NCBI GenBank assembly: GCA_963827235.1
Contig: CAWHAE010000014.1
Coordinates: 352,001-416,000 of the forward strand
Length of the DNA: 64,000 nucleotides
Source: an uncultured bacterium
GTDB lineage: Bacteria > Chloroflexota > UBA5177 > JANWHV01
Direction of reading: 5' to 3'
Position numbers and translations under genes: made by a program. Shown piece after piece: positions 6,132 to 26,595 of the stretch. Within the stretch, counting starts at the first letter, position 1. Every line of letters begins with the position of its first letter. The notes beneath the pieces were generated by a model that was not told the DNA's origin, made no database searches, and saw nothing but the letters and a program-made list of their open reading frames with translations.

Positions 6132-8800
<2,669 letters not shown>

Positions 8801-8814
<14 letters not shown>

Positions 8815-19879: not shown

Positions 19880-20926
19880 CTACCGGGCAGCCGCCGGGCG
19901 CGCAGCGCGGCGCTTCTTCATGCGCTCGATGAACTTGCCAATGCCGAGCTCGTCGTTTTCCCACACCACGAGCAGTGGGCTCGCATTGAAGATTGAGCTA
20001 TACGTGCCGCTCGTGATGCCGATCAGCAGCGTAATCACGAAGATGCGTATGCTGGCGCCGCTGAACAGCAGCAGCGCGGTCAGCGTCATGAGCACGGTGA
20101 GCGACGTGTTCAGCGAGCGCGCCATCGACTGTAGGATGGCGTTGTTAACGACCAGCTCAAACGGCTCGCCGATACGGCGGGCCATGTTCTCGCGTATCCG
20201 GTCGAAGATTACGATGGTGTCGTGCACCGAGAAGCCGATCACGGTGAGCACCGCGGTGACGAACAACGAATCCACGGTCACTCCCAGCAGGCGGCCGAAT
20301 ACGGCGAAGAGGCCCATGACCACCAAGACGTCGTGAATCAGCGCGATGATGGCACACGTGCCGTAGCGGAACGGGTGCGCCACCTTGCGGAAAGCAAACG
20401 AGATGTACAGCAGTATGAACACGGCAGCAATCACCACTGCCGTCGCCGCGCGACTGCGGATCTGCGACCCGATGGCGCCTCCGACGTCCGTCTCCTGCTG
20501 AAGCGTGATGTTCTTGCAGGTTGGCAAAGGCACTTTGTACTGCCCGTGACCCACTGTCTTGACCAGCGAGCCGCAACCATATTCCTGGTAGAGCGGTGCC
20601 AGCACGGCCGCCAGCTTCTGGGGCGAGTCGCCGATAAACGGTATGCGCACGAGATAGTGCGCGCCGGTGCCGCCAGCGCCGCCAAGCGGCGTCGAGGAGA
20701 CGACTTCGGCCTCGCTCAGTTTGGCATTGGTGAGTACCGCGTTACGGATCTGATCCTCGAGATGCGCGCTTGCCGGTGTGCTGCTGAACTGCAGCGTGAG
20801 CTCGGTGCCTCCCGTGAAGTCGATCCCCAGCTTCAGGCCCCCGGCCAGGAAGAAGATGAAGCCGGGAACGATGATCACCAGTGAAAACAGGAAGTACCAG
20901 TAGCGATATCTGATGATGTTAATCAT
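19880..20926 (-). CDS. secF: protein translocase subunit SecF
   Basis: LGIDFTGG, ALIHD, GFSVHDTIVIFDRIRE, RSLNT, GTYSSIF. Confidence 0.97.
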   Translation of the reverse strand: MINIIRYRYWYFLFSLVIIVPGFIFFLAGGLKLGIDFTGGTELTLQFSSTPASAHLEDQIRNAVLTNAKLSEAEVVSSTPLGGAGGTGAHYLVRIPFIGDSPQKLAAVLAPLYQEYGCGSLVKTVGHGQYKVPLPTCKNITLQQETDVGGAIGSQIRSRAATAVVIAAVFILLYISFAFRKVAHPFRYGTCAIIALIHDVLVVMGLFAVFGRLLGVTVDSLFVTAVLTVIGFSVHDTIVIFDRIRENMARRIGEPFELVVNNAILQSMARSLNTSLTVLMTLTALLLFSGASIRIFVITLLIGITSGTYSSIFNASPLLVVWENDELGIGKFIERMKKRRAARPAAAR

Positions 20927-20975: not shown

Positions 20976-22376
20976 TCAGTCGTGCTGTCCCCTGGTCGCA
21001 CGCGGCTGAGAGGCAATACTCTCCATCCCGGCGCCGAACCACTTCGGGTCATAGCTGATGTTGCCTCGCACGAGCACCCGCAGGAATGTGCGCGTGATCA
21101 TGATCGCCGTGAACATTGAGACGGCAACGCCGATGCCCAGCGTGGTGGCAAAACCCGCGATAGTCGTGGCACCGTAGTTCTGGCCGAACCAGTACAGCAC
21201 GCAGCAGGTGATGATCGTGCTGACGTTCGAGTCGCGGATACTGGTCCACGCACGGTTGAATCCGGCCTCGATGGCAGCACCAAGCGTCTTCCCGGAGCGC
21301 AGCTCCTCTTTCAGTCGCTCAAAGATCAGTATGTTGGCGTCGACCGCCATGCCGATGGAGAGTATGAACCCGCCTATGCCCGCCAGGGTGAGCGTGATGC
21401 CGCTCGCGCCGCTGCCGCTGAATGGCCAGAGCTTGAACACGGCGACAGAAAGCGACGTGTAGATGAGCAGTGCAAGGTCCGCCAGCAGGCCGGGCAGCCT
21501 GTAGTTCATGACCATGAAGAACATCACGACGAGCATGCCGACGATGGCGGCCTTGACGCTGTCGTTGACATATTGGGACCCCAGCGTGGCGCTGATCTGG
21601 CTGCTGGCCTCGGCGGTAAACGCGATCGGCAAGGCACCATACTTGAGCCGGATTGCTATCGCCTTGGCCGTGTCGCTGCTGCCGATGTTGTTGATCTCGC
21701 CGTTGCCGCCGGTGATCGCCGACTGGATCTTCGGGTCAGTGACCACCTTGCCGTCGAGCACGAAGGCCATGTACTCGCCGACGTGATCAGTGGTGTAGGA
21801 AGAAAGCCGTCCACTGGCACCGCCCTTGGCGCCGAAGGTCACGATCGGCTGCCCGTACTGGTCGAAGGTCGAGCTGATCTGGCTGGAATCGAGCTCGTTG
21901 CCCTTCATGACGACGCAGGGAGTGGGGGCGTTCTTGGCGTCGCACAGCGTCGATGTGTTCGAGTATGGGAATGTGGCACCATCCTGGAGCACCGTCAGGC
22001 TGCCCATGCCGTACAGCACGAGCTCGCCGGTGCTGCCGATAGTCTGCCGCACCACCTCCGGGTCCCTCACGCCCGGCATCTCTACGTCGATAGCGTCGGT
22101 TCCCAGCTGCGTCACGATCGGCTCGGACACGCCGAACGCATTGACGCGCTTGGTAATGATGTCTATTGCCGCGCTCATGGCGTCGCTCGTGGCTGCTTTC
22201 GAGTTGCGTGCTTTGAGCTCCATGCTGAGGCCGCCGGTCAGGTCAAGGCCCTGGTGGATCGCGGTGCCGTGTCCAAACACCGTGAACTTGCCTGCCGTGC
22301 CCGCCAGATCCGCCAGGACGGCAGCAATCGTCAGCAGGATAATCCCGATCAGAGCTAAGTTAGCGTGTTGACGCAT
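20976..22376 (-). CDS. secD: protein translocase subunit SecD
   Basis: GLDLTGG, RVNAFGVSEP, YGALP, GMAVDANILIFER, IRDSNVST. Confidence 0.97.
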   Translation of the reverse strand: MRQHANLALIGIILLTIAAVLADLAGTAGKFTVFGHGTAIHQGLDLTGGLSMELKARNSKAATSDAMSAAIDIITKRVNAFGVSEPIVTQLGTDAIDVEMPGVRDPEVVRQTIGSTGELVLYGMGSLTVLQDGATFPYSNTSTLCDAKNAPTPCVVMKGNELDSSQISSTFDQYGQPIVTFGAKGGASGRLSSYTTDHVGEYMAFVLDGKVVTDPKIQSAITGGNGEINNIGSSDTAKAIAIRLKYGALPIAFTAEASSQISATLGSQYVNDSVKAAIVGMLVVMFFMVMNYRLPGLLADLALLIYTSLSVAVFKLWPFSGSGASGITLTLAGIGGFILSIGMAVDANILIFERLKEELRSGKTLGAAIEAGFNRAWTSIRDSNVSTIITCCVLYWFGQNYGATTIAGFATTLGIGVAVSMFTAIMITRTFLRVLVRGNISYDPKWFGAGMESIASQPRATRGQHD

Positions 22377-22510
22377 ACGTGTACCTCTCAGTCTTCATCG
22401 CAGGAAACATGGACTGGGCCGGCCCGCTTCGCCGCACGGGCTGCGTGCCGCGGCGCGGCCGGTCGCGATCGCGTGCCTGGAGGGGATGAAAACTAGGGAG
22501 CGCGTATGCG
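22372..22510 (-). promoter_or_regulatory. predicted mRNA stem-loop sequestering the secD RBS and start codon
   Basis: 22503-22510 is a perfect 8-bp inverse of 22372-22379, which covers the secD ATG. 22485-22495 pairs with 22389-22399 (11 bp, 2 G-U) next to the SD. GC-rich nested stems lie between. Confidence 0.7.
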
Positions 22511-22936
22511 CGGCGGCGACTTGGCAGCGGAGGACGAAGGCACGACCTGAGACGCCGCCACCAGTGCTCTGTTCGTAGTACTGCCGGCGGTGTCCGAGGA
22601 CTTGTCGCCAAGCAACTGGACCGATCGCGGATCCCTCGCCCTGGGAGTGCGAGCAGGAGCGATGGCCGGAGCGGCGTCCAGCGATCGAAGGTGAGAGCCA
22701 TCCTGCTCGGGGCTTGAGAGCCCGGCCGAAGGCAGCAACAACGTCTGGCCGTCAATTGCCCCGGTGCTGATTGCCGATCGGGCCTGAGACACGTCCGACT
22801 GAAGCGCGGGCTGGACCGGAGCTTGCGCGAGATCGCGCGCACCGGCAATAGCGCCCACGCCGCCGCTGCCGGCGTGAAGCGAGGCGACGAAGATGGCGAG
22901 CGCGCGCACTAACGACGATACGGACCGCACACGCAT
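22493..22936 (-). CDS. putative secretion-monitor/ribosome arrest leader peptide upstream of secDF
   Basis: GAGGTG SD; basic then hydrophobic N-terminus (MRVRSVSSLVRALAIFVASLHA); low-complexity spacer; C-terminal PPRIRAP-stop; 116 nt upstream of secD. Confidence 0.65.
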   Translation of the reverse strand: MRVRSVSSLVRALAIFVASLHAGSGGVGAIAGARDLAQAPVQPALQSDVSQARSAISTGAIDGQTLLLPSAGLSSPEQDGSHLRSLDAAPAIAPARTPRARDPRSVQLLGDKSSDTAGSTTNRALVAASQVVPSSSAAKSPPRIRAP

Positions 22937-23002
22937 CAGGCTACTGTCACCTCGAGATTATGCTGCAGGCAGCCGGCACAGGCTGCCGAATGAGCACTCA
23001 CT

Positions 23003-23032
23003 AGTATCTTGGTCCAGGTGCCCGCGTGTCAA
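23003..23032 (-). promoter_or_regulatory. putative sigma70 promoter for leader-secD-secF
   Basis: Minus strand TTGACA-N18-GATACT. Confidence 0.4.
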
Positions 23033-23056
23033 ACGCGCAGAGCCCGTGGGGCGCCT

Positions 23057-23896
23057 TCACGGACGGTCGGTATACTCCACGCCGCGCAGCCTGCGTGACC
23101 TGGGACGCGGCGACGCAGGGCCCGCGTCGACGTCTGCGCCCACCCCGCCGCGAAAGTCGCGCGAATCAATGGTCACGCAGGTGCTAATCACAGGGTCCGA
23201 CATGCGAGAGGCGAGACGGCCGCCGATCTCGTCCAGCGAGCTATTCGTGGTGATCACCGTGGGCAGGCGATAGATGTAGCGGTGATTGAAAAGCTGATAG
23301 AGCTTCTCGGTCGCCCACTGCGTGCTGATCTGAGTACCCAGGTCATCAAGAATGAGGAGCTGAGCCTGGCGGACACCCTCGAAAAAGTCGTCGTAATCGA
23401 GCTCGCTTCCGGGCGCGTAGGCAGAACGCAAGTGGTCGAGCAGATCCGGAACGACCATGAACAGTGCCGGCTCTCCGATCGAGAGCCTGTAGTTGCCGAT
23501 AGCCGCGGCCAGATGGGTCTTCCCTGTCCCGTACCCTCCCATGATCACCAGCCACCCGTCAGGGCTGAGAGCGTACTGCTGGGCACGTTTGTGAGCATTC
23601 TGCTGCGGTGAGTCGACGATAAAGGACTCGAAGGTCATGCCGGCGAGAGCTCGCAAGTTGGATTTTTCCAGCAGTCGCTGCATCCGGCGCTCCGCTATCT
23701 CGCGCTCCTTGCAGGTGCAGGGCACGATACTGCCGAAGCGCGGATCGTCTACCGGCACGTCCAGGCGCAGGTACCCGGCACCGCGGCACTGGGCGCAAAC
23801 CGGAGTGAGGTCACGACTGGACGACGTGACCGTATCGGCCCCCGGTGTATTTCTCCGGATCTCCAGGCGCTTCAGGATGTCGCCGATCGATTCCAC
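23057..23896 (-). CDS. DnaC/DnaI/IstB-like AAA+ helicase loader
   Basis: CAQC..CTC zinc motif, GGYGTGKT, LILDDLG, ITTN, RLASR. GTG start at 23896. Confidence 0.88.
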   Translation of the reverse strand: MESIGDILKRLEIRRNTPGADTVTSSSRDLTPVCAQCRGAGYLRLDVPVDDPRFGSIVPCTCKEREIAERRMQRLLEKSNLRALAGMTFESFIVDSPQQNAHKRAQQYALSPDGWLVIMGGYGTGKTHLAAAIGNYRLSIGEPALFMVVPDLLDHLRSAYAPGSELDYDDFFEGVRQAQLLILDDLGTQISTQWATEKLYQLFNHRYIYRLPTVITTNSSLDEIGGRLASRMSDPVISTCVTIDSRDFRGGVGADVDAGPASPRPRSRRLRGVEYTDRP

Positions 23897-24545
23897 TGGA
23901 CTTCCCTTCAGCCTCCCACCGCTTGAGTATCGCTCCGACGTACGCCCAGTTGCGCTTGTTCTGCTCCACGGCCAGACGCATCGCGTCCCCGATCCACTCG
24001 GGCGGATAGCTGAGCTCCGCGTCGCGCAGCCGATCCGCAATTAGCGGAGTGAGCACGCCGATATTCCGCTCATATAATGTAAAGATATTTGGTCGATAGA
24101 TGCGAACCACCTCGACCGGCCCGGTATCCGCGCCGACCACCTCGGACGGGTCTATCTCCTCGCGCCGGAGACGCTCGATTGCCTCGCGGCTAACCGGCGT
24201 ATTGATCAGGTACCAGCGCTGCAGTTCCTTCTCGGACCTACCGAGCGAGACCAGGAGCACGGTGCCTCGGGTGACGGCAAGCTCCAGGCCTTCACGGAGG
24301 TAATCCTCGGCAGCACGCGGCCCCAAGCGCGGCTTCAGCGAGCGGAGCAGCACGTGGTCGGCTTGCAGCTCTTCGAGCGACATTGCCTTGGGCAGTCCTT
24401 TGCGCCGCGCCAGGCGCCAAAACAGATGGAGCGTCACTTTAAGCTCGACGAGCGATTCGATCTCGGGAAGCAAGATACTGAAAAACGCATCCGGCACCGG
24501 CGTGTTCGGCGCCCTGCTCGGGTAGAAGCCTGCGAAGCCGCTCAT
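23811..24545 (-). CDS. DnaD domain replication protein
   Basis: VPDAFFS.LLP.I..L.ELKV, IFTLYERNIG.LTP, WAYV..IL..W DnaD pattern. ATGA overlap with the dnaB stop. Confidence 0.88.
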   Translation of the reverse strand: MSGFAGFYPSRAPNTPVPDAFFSILLPEIESLVELKVTLHLFWRLARRKGLPKAMSLEELQADHVLLRSLKPRLGPRAAEDYLREGLELAVTRGTVLLVSLGRSEKELQRWYLINTPVSREAIERLRREEIDPSEVVGADTGPVEVVRIYRPNIFTLYERNIGVLTPLIADRLRDAELSYPPEWIGDAMRLAVEQNKRNWAYVGAILKRWEAEGKSSGIDRRHPEAPGDPEKYTGGRYGHVVQS

Positions 24546-25891
24546 AGAGGCGTCCGAGCCTCGAGATCTCGGAATCTCGTCTGTACCTTGTCGAAATAGA
24601 GCGACAGCTGACCGGTCGGGCCGTTGCGGTGCTTGGCAACGTAGAGGTCCGCGATGTGCTGTTTCTCGGTCTCGGGATCGTACATCTCTTCGCGACACAG
24701 GAAGATGACGACGTCTGCGTCCTGCTCGATGCTTCCGCTCTCGCGCAAATCGGAGAGCAGAGGGACGTGAGAGGTCCGCGAGTCGACGCCGCGCGACACC
24801 TGCGAAAGCGCCACCACCGGCACGTTCAACTCCCGCGCCAGGACCTTGAGCGCGCGAGAGATGCCGCTGATCTCCTGCACGCGGTTCTCGGAGGCACGAC
24901 CCGACATGAGCTGCAAGTAGTCGACCACGATCAAGTCCAGCCCTTGCTCTGCCTGCAGCCTGCGAGCACGATTGCGCATCTCCGCGGGCGTGATGCCGGC
25001 CGAATCGTCGATGAAGATCTTGGTTTCGGAAAGCACGCCGGCCGCTTCGATCAGTCTGCCCCATTCGGACTCGTCAATGTAGCCCGAGCGCAGGCGCCCG
25101 CTGTCCAGTCGCCCTTGCATGCACAGGAGACGCTGCACGAGCTGTTCCTTCGACATTTCGAGGCTGAATAGCGCGATCCGATGCTTGAAGCGCACGGCCG
25201 CGTTATGGCACATGCCCAGCGCAAGTGCCGTCTTGCCGTGTGCCGGTCGTGCGCCAACGATGATCAGATCGGAGCGCTGCAGGCCGCCGAGAATCTTGTC
25301 GAGATCGACGAATCCCGTGGGCGTGCCGAGGATGGCACCTCGGTGCTCGTGGACATAATCGGCCTGTTCGAGTATGGTGGTCAATACCTCGCGGATCGGC
25401 ACGAAGCCGGCGCTGTTCCGGCCCTGGGAAACGGCGAAGAGCGTCTCCTCGGCGTCGTTCAGCGCCTCCTCGACTTCGACGCCATCACGTTGCGCGATGC
25501 TGATGATCTGCCCGCCGGCGCGGATCAGTCTGCGTAGCACCGCCAATCGCTCGACGATACGCGCGTAATGCTCCGCGTGCAGGGAGGTGGCGACCACGTC
25601 CACCAGCGACAGCACATACCCCCGCCCCCCGGACCGCTGGAGGAGGTCGCGTCGCTCGACCTCCTCCAGCACGGTGATCACGTCGACGGGCCGGCGCTGT
25701 TCGTACAGGTCTACCATGACGCGGTAGATCACCGCGTGCGCGTCGTGGGCAAAGTCATCCGGCCGCAGGATGGCAGTTATCTCGATAATGGCGTCGGGAT
25801 CGAGAAGCAGACTGCCAAGAACGGCCTGTTCGGCTTCAAGACTGCGCGGTAGGTGCTCTTCGCCTCCAGCCGCCAGTGTCTCCGTGATCAA
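24542..25891 (-). CDS. dnaB: replicative DNA helicase
   Basis: EAEQAVLG, GARPAHGKT, FSLEM, VDYLQLM, SDLRESGSIEQDAD, KHRNGPTG. No intein. Confidence 0.97.
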   Translation of the reverse strand: MITETLAAGGEEHLPRSLEAEQAVLGSLLLDPDAIIEITAILRPDDFAHDAHAVIYRVMVDLYEQRRPVDVITVLEEVERRDLLQRSGGRGYVLSLVDVVATSLHAEHYARIVERLAVLRRLIRAGGQIISIAQRDGVEVEEALNDAEETLFAVSQGRNSAGFVPIREVLTTILEQADYVHEHRGAILGTPTGFVDLDKILGGLQRSDLIIVGARPAHGKTALALGMCHNAAVRFKHRIALFSLEMSKEQLVQRLLCMQGRLDSGRLRSGYIDESEWGRLIEAAGVLSETKIFIDDSAGITPAEMRNRARRLQAEQGLDLIVVDYLQLMSGRASENRVQEISGISRALKVLARELNVPVVALSQVSRGVDSRTSHVPLLSDLRESGSIEQDADVVIFLCREEMYDPETEKQHIADLYVAKHRNGPTGQLSLYFDKVQTRFRDLEARTPL

Positions 25892-26346
25892 GCGGAGGCC
25901 GCCTCCTGCAGCGTGACGTTGATAGCTGCCTTAACGTCGTGCCCCAACCGCACCGGAACGGTGTAGCTGCCCAGTGTCTTCAACGCGTCGGGAAGATCGA
26001 TGTCTCGGCGGTCGATTGTGATCTCGGCGGCTCGAGCGAGCTCGTCGGCGATGTCTTTGCTCGTGATGGACCCATACAGGCGATTCTGCTCGCCCACTCG
26101 CACCTGGAACACGAGCGACACCCCGGCTAGGCGAGCGGCCAGGCCTTCTGCGTCCGTCCGTGCCTTCTCCTGAGATTTGGCAATCTGCGAGCGACGAGCC
26201 TCGAGGGACTTCAGCTCCCCGGCCGTGGCAAGCACCGCGAGGCCCTGAGGCACCAGGTAATTGCGCATGTACCCGGGCGAGACTTCCTTGAGCTCCCCCG
26301 CCTTACCCAGGTTTGCCACGTCTTTCTGCAGCACCACACGTACCAT
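25888..26346 (-). CDS. rplI: 50S ribosomal protein L9
   Basis: DVANLGKAG..VSPGYMRNYLVP, RLYGSIT. AGGAG RBS. Confidence 0.97.
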   Translation of the reverse strand: MVRVVLQKDVANLGKAGELKEVSPGYMRNYLVPQGLAVLATAGELKSLEARRSQIAKSQEKARTDAEGLAARLAGVSLVFQVRVGEQNRLYGSITSKDIADELARAAEITIDRRDIDLPDALKTLGSYTVPVRLGHDVKAAINVTLQEAASA

Positions 26347-26595
26347 GCCTGCCAACTCCTAACCGACATTGTCTGCAATGAGGGTATGCCGGTAAACAAC
26401 GTTACCCACGGCATGCCCGCGAACATCTACAACGCTACAGTGTACCCGAGGGTAGAATCGGGCGTGGAGCGCGTTCAGGCCGCCGGGTCACCGGAGAGCG
26501 CGTCACGTCCGCCCGCTTGCCTTCCGGGGCCTGCGCTCCAACCGGCTCGGTTGTGGAAAAAATAATCTCACTCGCGCTCTGATAGAAGGCATCTA

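Follow-up and report, generated by a model that had tools for sequence, protein, structure and literature searches.

We analysed a window of 64,000 nucleotides (the whole stretch of DNA considered here; positions 352,001 to 416,000 of contig CAWHAE010000014.1, assembly GCA_963827235.1) from an uncultured member of the Chloroflexota. On its minus strand, secD and secF are preceded by a small, co-oriented upstream open reading frame (uORF). As an earlier note on this DNA had described, the uORF has 147 codons and its own Shine-Dalgarno (SD) sequence, its stop codon lies 116 nt from the secD ATG (22376), and it ends in RIRAP and a stop. We found that the encoded protein begins with MRVRSVSSLVRALAIFVASLHA and ends with KSPPRIRAP, followed by TAG at 22495..22493. 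From its sequence and by analogy with known systems, we consider that the product of the uORF is probably a Sec-monitoring arrest peptide of RAPP-like (R-A-P-x) type, restricted to one genus and exerting feedback control on secD-secF. The coordinates of all features are given in Table 1.

We compared the source genome (G000) with its congeners G001, G002, G003, and G004 (genus g1, family f1). The uORF frame is open in all four genomes with DNA for the whole locus (G000, G001, G003, and G004). G001 has a syntenic open reading frame (ORF) of 147 codons, with 46% identity, between a dnaC-like gene and secD; its end reads NDPQRIRAP-TAG (CCG TAG). G003 and G004, whose SecD is 65 to 66% identical, carry a syntenic 142-codon ORF upstream of secD, and in G002 only the N-terminal 63 to 67 codons are present, at a contig end. 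The SD sequence has a counterpart at equal spacing in G001 and G003 (GAGGTA or GAGAGGA).

Between G000 and G001, nucleotide identity at the first, second, and third codon positions of the uORF was 0.615, 0.723, and 0.365, and omega was 0.25, compared with 0.055 for secD. The other two frames of the region contain stops and are 21 to 25% identical. Codons 141 to 147 differ by four synonymous changes and one non-synonymous change, and codons 106 to 140 have a pN of 0.575, near saturation at non-synonymous sites. The compositional coding signal was weak (G+C contents of 0.68, 0.62, and 0.74 by codon position), and a 162-codon ORF overlaps the region in another frame. Motif and composition alone are thus insufficient to place the uORF beyond chance; it is the conservation of both the frame and RAP that does so. 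We concluded from these comparisons that the uORF is a genuine gene. DNA run X1 consisted of short G+C-rich fragments and one 151-base contig (22941..23091), with 22489..22839 uncovered.

We then found relatives of the uORF protein in protein collections. A word-indexed search returned two metagenome proteins, both of 147 amino acids and both ending in RIRAP. A six-sequence profile searched against 1.84 billion representative proteins gave 13 matches at E<=0.001; twelve were sequences that the alignment had lacked, and with them the family stood at 18 sequences. One homologue is labelled "hypothetical protein" by its source, and annotation of the uORF itself would likewise stop at "hypothetical." Searches of genome contigs with the uORF alignment or with SecD found no related locus, and the metagenome contigs yielded a single partial uORF locus (L030, residues 1 to 81). 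DNA spanning both the motif and the leader was at hand for four sequences only.

The alignment of the 18 sequences has two conserved blocks and nothing else: the first ~26 residues, with the consensus M-R-x-R-S-x-P-x-x-L-R-T-x-x-x-F-x-A-S-L-x-A-x-x-x-G, and the near-terminal R-A-P. The motif x-[A/I/T]-R-A-P is present in 17 of 18 members, with RAP at residues 133 to 157. Each of these 17 has a single RAP, except P0007, which has two. The remaining protein, P0008, is nearly the same as P0006 over its first ~65 residues, then diverges fully and ends in RALLCRWTDPAR; a frameshift or decay of the copy may account for this. The earlier note had proposed to test whether relatives keep the signal segment and RAP around a divergent spacer, and this is what we observed.

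The residue after RAP differed by subgroup: it is Cys in eight members, a stop in five, Asn in two, Asp in one, and Ser in one (n = 17). RAP-stop is therefore not the family signature. The five RAP-stop members are G000, G001, P0001, P0002, and P0003, and the other 12 run 6 to 8 more residues before their stop. Pro-stop is conserved throughout the G000 sub-clade (5/5), and family-wide it is found in 5/17. On this alignment, RAP-stop is the derived state of one sub-clade. The idea that arrest occurs at termination on RAP-stop thus stands as a possibility for that sub-clade at most, because 12 of 17 members continue past RAP; what the family conserves is RAP itself. The suggestion that a missed base in G000 hides a RAPP did not hold up, as G001 (from its DNA) and the three metagenome proteins P0001 to P0003 also end in RIRAP-stop.

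The two conserved blocks frame a layout common to the family. At the N-terminus, the first 12 residues have a net charge between +2 and +5, and the hydrophobic core spans ~9 to 12 residues (Kyte-Doolittle mean over 11 residues, about 2). In the G000 protein, the charge over residues 1 to 12 is +3, and the 11-residue maximum is 2.13, at residues 8 to 18. An A-x-A-like site follows, LHA/G in G000 and ARA/G in most other members. In alignment A4, conservation is highest in this segment. AlphaFold2, run on the six-sequence alignment, predicted one helix (residues 6 to 23) and no other secondary structure, with a mean predicted local distance difference test (pLDDT) score of 55 and a predicted template modeling (pTM) score of 0.17. 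Judged by these proxies of charge, hydrophobicity, cleavage site, and predicted helix, the N-terminus is signal-peptide-like. The spacer that follows is 110 to 125 residues long across the family and cannot be aligned between subgroups.

Table 1. Features of the uORF-secD-secF locus (window coordinates)
Feature	Position	Strand	Description
secF	19880..20926	minus	Pfam SecD_SecF_C (1.6e-50), Sec_GG
secD	20976..22376	minus	Pfam SecDF_P1_head, SecD_1st, SecD_SecF_C
secD start region, 3' strand of predicted helix	22371..22399	minus	SD GAGAGG 22384..22389, AUG 22374..22376
uORF-secD leader	22377..22492	minus	116 nt, G+C-rich; no terminator, no Rfam match
C-rich tract CCCCTCC	22479..22485	minus	conserved as TCTCCTCC in G001 (alignment A5 island)
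Predicted long-range helix, 5' strand	22485..22511	minus	minimum-free-energy (MFE) fold; wholly inside Pro147 ribosome footprint
uORF, candidate Sec-monitoring arrest peptide	22493..22936	minus	147 codons plus TAG, ATG start
R143-I-R-A-P147 codons plus TAG, proposed arrest site	22493..22510	minus	Pro147 in peptidyl (P) site, UAG in aminoacyl (A) site
Fast-evolving spacer, residues 23-142	22511..22870	minus	pLDDT 41-61, no predicted structure
Signal-peptide-like segment, residues 1-22	22871..22936	minus	basic n-region, core ALAIFVASL, LHA/G
uORF SD GAGGTG	22948..22953	minus	ATG 11 nt further on
Sigma-70-like promoter TTGACA-18 nt-GATACT	23003..23032	minus	10/12 matches; 1 site vs 0.1 in shuffles

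We looked for the uORF in other genomes by using the 18-sequence profile. It was present in 5/5 genomes of genus g1 and in 0/16 genomes of the class's other two families, so the lineage restriction that had been proposed was upheld. In an evenly sampled set of 401 genomes of the phylum, it was found in five, the same five genomes. We also read the DNA upstream of secD in the 57 genomes with a SecD match from a sample of 61 (G000 to G060). The filter was an ORF of 50 to 300 amino acids that ends <=1,200 nt upstream of the SecD match, has a hydrophobic N-terminus, and has either a RAP-like motif in its last 14 residues or a terminal Pro. This filter gave the four g1 uORFs and one marginal, unrelated ORF (90 amino acids, ending in EIEVAP, in G029). 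Two genomes, G016 and G020, have <300 nt upstream, and 51 genomes outside the genus could be assessed, the unpublished G018 included. G000 has one SecD match at E<=1e-20, and the uORF therefore precedes the sole secDF detected in this genome. Similar uORFs were looked for upstream of secA and yidC in G000, and none was found.

The sigma-70-like promoter stands between the uORF and the end of the dnaC-like ATPase gene (23057), and TTGACA-18-[G/C]ATACT also occurs upstream of the uORF in G001 and G004. Further upstream on the minus strand (23057..26355), the gene order is rplI (L9), the dnaB helicase gene, a 417-codon ORF, and the dnaC/IstB-like ATPase gene. The conserved part of the 417-codon ORF matches the ORF that precedes the dnaC-like gene in G001 and G002. 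In G005 and G017 (family f2), a dnaC-like gene precedes secD with a gap of 200 to 270 nt and no uORF. Family f3, which belongs to the same class, has a conserved gene of ~270 to 340 amino acids, which is not the uORF, 82 to 99 nt before secD; it ends in R[FV][RW]A.PE and was seen at loci L036, L039, L040, L042, L044 to L047, and L090.

Two other observations concern G000 outside this operon. The secA gene (window 6132..8814, plus strand) is seemingly frameshifted. Its first 46 codons, from the ATG at 6132, run into a TGA at 6270..6272, and the remainder of SecA lies in the next frame as an 865-codon ORF (6217..8814). The frame join, after LSDQQL, looks like one extra base near 6255 to 6260. 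Because the SecA N-terminus lies within one open frame in G001 and G003 (941 and 1,069 amino acids), the break is an assembly indel or a G000-specific change. Two further long ORFs with hydrophobic N-termini end in RAP-stop, C10:294045..295178 (plus strand, 377 amino acids) and C16:790812..792176 (minus strand, 454 amino acids).

We next consider the leader RNA. The leader is 64% identical between G000 and G001, compared with 36% at the third positions of the uORF. A scan of 22200..23200 with Rfam (E<=1) and for terminators gave nothing. The MFE fold of G000 predicts a long-range helix between the end of the uORF and the secD start region. Its 5' strand takes in the last base of the Pro142 codon, codons Arg143 to Pro147, the UAG, and ten further bases. 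In a duplex scan of 548 windows of 28 nt along the G000 mRNA against the secD start region, the best window had an energy of -26.9 kcal/mol (mean, -12.3; standard deviation [sd], 3.5). The five best windows lie 1 to 5 nt upstream of the Pro147 footprint, and the footprint window itself ties for fifth (-25.2). With RNAalifold, G000 and G001 share a closing helix of 15 pairs, of which 14 are unchanged and the fifteenth is kept as G-U after a synonymous CGC-to-CGU change. The inner helices contain three double compensatory changes. The C-rich tract pairs with GAGG in the G001 MFE fold and is possibly an alternative anti-Shine-Dalgarno sequence.

To represent a ribosome, we kept positions -12 to +15 relative to the P-site codon unpaired, and we computed the ensemble opening cost of secD positions -18..+13 in scans of the last 25 and the last 75 codons. 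With a ribosome on Pro147, the predicted cost was ~7 to 8 kcal/mol lower: 14.3 rather than 21.4 kcal/mol in G000, and 11.4 rather than 19.0 kcal/mol in G001. Taking both scans together, the G000 cost went from ~20 to 21 kcal/mol down to 12 to 14 kcal/mol. Pro147 gave the lowest or second-lowest cost among the last 75 codons in both genomes. The secD start site of G003 and G004 has little structure (9 to 12 kcal/mol), and in the 25-codon scan the RAP codon gave the lowest cost in both. By these models, the RAP-stop sub-clade has reasonable support for an RNA switch, and the remaining members have none. Within the sub-clade, RNA constraint could add to the conservation of the RIRAP codons. Because these codons form a helix strand, the case for peptide-level selection rests on the whole family.

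Ordinary translational coupling is one alternative. According to this model, an arriving ribosome briefly melts the secD helix with no programmed arrest, and the RIRAP codons are kept mainly as an RNA partner. In its favor, a start-site helix is predicted in both G000 and G001, and every synonymous change in the RIRAP codons is compatible with that helix. In contrast, G003 and G004 keep the RAP peptide without the pairing, and there RAP lies 7 codons before the stop. Coupling would also leave the conserved export signal and the long spacer without a role, and the residues that follow RAP match the set that ApcA permits in the A site. We therefore regard coupling as an unlikely explanation of the locus.

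It is also rather improbable that the uORF encodes a small secreted or envelope protein that has its own function, shares an operon with secDF, and keeps RAP for a non-ribosomal reason. The conserved signal-like N-terminus would suit such a protein, and some mid-region residues are invariant in the close sub-clade. However, no fold is predicted past the signal helix, and no Pfam family was matched. The spacer is near neutral over codons 106 to 140, and the sole conserved part of the mature chain is a known ribosome-stalling tripeptide at the usual place for monitors.

Since yajC often lies directly upstream of secD, a divergent YajC-like Sec accessory subunit was another candidate, one that we hold to be very improbable. 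PF02699 is unmatched anywhere in G000. However, it was found in 4/61 sampled genomes of the phylum and in 0/21 of the class, and because YajC is scarce across the sample, its absence in G000 is not special. The uORF matched no Pfam family at E<=0.1, SecM (PF06558) and YajC (PF02699) included. Its chain is predicted to be unstructured, and its hydrophobic core, which lies between charges, is too short for a membrane anchor. We rejected the YajC identity on these grounds. A chance open frame in G+C-rich noncoding DNA, to which the weak composition and the overlapping 162-codon ORF would point, is a negligible prospect given that this is the sole open frame in G000, G001, G003, and G004, that third positions are the least conserved (0.365, compared with 0.723 for second positions), and that the profile search had thirteen matches in 1.84 billion proteins.

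We thus favor a Sec-monitoring arrest peptide. R-A-P satisfies the three-residue pattern (R/Q/H)-(A/G/D)-(P/G/S) of the published RAPP-like ("RQH") group in 17/18 members, with its Pro placed in the P site by analogy. The strict four-residue RQH consensus fails at position four, and for this reason we suggest that the uORF works like an ApcA-type RAPx peptide located upstream of secDF and is not itself a member of the ApcA, ApdA, or NAP-stop groups. By analogy with known monitors, we infer stalling, release by export, and induction of secDF. All the steps of the mechanism are drawn from the anatomy of the locus and from such analogies. The operon would be transcribed from its own promoter. During translation, the signal peptide would emerge ~125 residues ahead of the stall and engage the Sec machinery. 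With RAP in place, the A site would hold UAG in G000 and its close kin, and the blocked step would be release by RF1. In the remaining members, it would hold a Cys, Asn, Asp, or Ser codon, and the blocked step would be peptide bond formation. When export works, pull on the chain would end the stall. When export is slow, the stall would last longer, and the parked ribosome would keep the last uORF codons off the secD SD sequence and AUG, so that more SecDF is made.

Several observations weigh against this reading. C-terminal RAP is not rare: it ends 8 of 6,293 long ORFs in a crude G000 ORF set, with 4.1 expected. P0008, the sole member without it, belongs to the family all the same. Position four is never Pro or Gly (0/17), which breaks the strict four-residue RQH consensus. 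ApdA and ApdP require an A-site Pro (Sakiyama et al. 2021). In the structural model of Morici et al. 2024, the Arg of RAP enters a pocket of the 23S rRNA and the Ala carbonyl holds the nitrogen of the A-site proline. The latter contact is impossible with a stop or a Cys, and the RAPP model does not account for stalls at Cys, Asn, or a stop. A 2025 paper in EMBO J treats RAPP and RGPP as versatile cores but reports that RAPG does not work in the context of ApdP or of SecM and that RAPP-like motifs are insufficient without a proper upstream sequence. In our crude G000 ORF set, RAPP was seen 42 times, with 89.8 expected, and RGPP 32 times, with 64.2 expected, a depletion that agrees with the proteome-wide avoidance described in the same paper.

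The RNA predictions raise further objections. The drop in opening cost is just 1.7 to 4.3 kcal/mol in G003 and G004 and is not RAP-specific in G003; in the 75-codon scan, the RAP codon is not the lowest in G003 and is tied for lowest in G004. In the duplex scan, the RAP windows rank 99/514 in G003 and 89/516 in G004, and the SD sequence is unpaired in the consensus fold of these two genomes. Even in G001, the exact footprint window ranks 172/543, and a window 11 to 12 nt downstream ranks 4th to 5th. The unpaired probability of the SD core went from 0.35 to 0.25 in G000 and from 0.17 to 0.18 in G001, at any footprint length. It barely moves because the SD sequence re-pairs locally, and we therefore used the opening energy as the measure. 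Just the AUG and the opening energy change in these two genomes with a ribosome in place. In addition, the three synonymous differences in the RIRAP codons are all at helix positions that are unpaired or form a wobble pair.

We also put forward, tentatively and as something we doubt, that one family with a single R-A-P end blocks two reactions, peptide bond formation in most members and RF1 release at UAG in the others. The shift to RAP-stop would then have arisen together with the use of the arrest codons as the strand that hides the secD start. If this is true, the family would be a natural series of RAP-type arrest without an A-site proline, contrary to the model of Morici et al. 2024. Should stalling be confirmed, RAP-Cys, RAP-Asn, RAP-Asp, RAP-Ser, and RAP-stop would serve as matched natural variants to probe how far arrest depends on the A-site substrate and could show whether arrest at elongation and arrest at termination interchange.

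Monitors of Sec and YidC are textbook force-sensitive reporters of the nascent chain, and their distribution is patchy and lineage-specific. The uORF is a further candidate, from an uncultured lineage; the class to which this lineage belongs is represented by only 21 species in our genome collection. SecM (RAGP, upstream of secA) and VemP (upstream of secD2F2) resemble it in having a signal peptide, a long spacer (medians of 131.5 and 133 residues), and C-terminal arrest, and they control the downstream Sec gene through an SD-sequestering structure. They have no sequence relationship to the uORF. In Atlas, which compares language-model features over 7.7 million clusters, the nearest cluster is unnamed (173 amino acids, Thermodesulfobacteriota) and the SecM "Secretion monitor" cluster is second, with a score of 0.85. 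Both scores (0.85 to 0.86) are below the 0.9 reliability line, and the likeness to SecM is a weak lead only. Stalling with a stop codon in the A site is familiar from the leader peptide TnaC, whose C-terminal Arg-Pro is on the P-site tRNA during the stall and which blocks the release factor. TnaC requires free tryptophan, acts on Rho termination, and is not known to carry an export signal.

The closest body of work is a screen of 30,175 annotated GTDB r202 genomes for uORFs of secA, secDF, and yidC (Fujiwara et al. 2024), which targeted small, signal-bearing uORFs with conserved C-termini. The uORF shows all four of its in-silico features: it is (i) a small ORF of unannotated function, co-oriented and directly upstream of secDF, (ii) with an N-terminal secretion signal (by the proxies above), (iii) with a C-terminus conserved among homologues (17/18), and (iv) with a spacer of >30 residues, as the signal ends near residue 22 to 25 and RAP is at residues 133 to 157. 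The main text of that paper, its supplementary uORF lists apart, contains no "Chloroflex," "Dormibacter," or "RAP-stop." A literature search on arrest peptides found no paper with "RAP-stop," and in the literature from 2024 on we found no further secDF monitor.

Fujiwara et al. 2024 found RAPP-like groups in nine phyla, eleven of these groups upstream of secDF. ApdA, ApdP, and the secDF RQH uORFs are, like the uORF, small and signal-bearing, with a C-terminal RAPP-like motif. Every RQH member that was toeprinted stalls with the P site occupied by the third motif residue, and the toeprinted consensus has Pro or Gly as the fourth, A-site residue. The uORF family differs in having Cys, Asn, Asp, Ser, or a stop there (17/17). 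In uDF_RQH_Enterobacterales, arrest opens a stem that hides the SD sequence and induces secDF2, and a like logic is predicted for G000 and G001.

ApcA (RAPG) shares with the uORF an R-A-P at the P-site position and a variable A-site residue. Its arrest is strengthened by Pro and Cys in the A site, is at the wild-type level with Asn, Thr, Ser, Asp, or Ala, and is weakened by the other twelve substitutions (Sakiyama et al. 2021). The Cys, Asn, Asp, and Ser of the uORF family are all in this permissive set, and the commonest of them, Cys, enhances ApcA arrest. The two are likened by the motif and by the spectrum of residues that follow it. ApcA is actinobacterial, lies upstream of yidC, and has N-terminal transmembrane segments and a short spacer, whereas the uORF precedes secDF, its N-terminus is signal-like, and its spacer measures 110 to 125 residues. 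The novelty that the earlier note saw in a RAP-stop variant is smaller than it had supposed, as the query motifs that Fujiwara et al. 2024 took from ApcA-cluster uORFs already include RAP*, RAPC, RAPD, and RAPS and the same paper demonstrates stop-dependent arrest. The present family is more than a routine addition in one respect: none of its members has a proline in the A site, and one natural form has a stop codon there. The closest precedents for the G000 sub-clade are uDF_NAP-stop and uA_NSP-stop of the Bacteroidota, uORFs of secDF and secA, which likewise end in x-A/S-Pro-stop; by toeprinting, the stop codon occupies the A site of the stalled ribosome, and arrest requires it (Fujiwara et al. 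2024). They differ in having Asn rather than Arg at -3, in belonging to another phylum, and in conserving the terminal Pro-stop.

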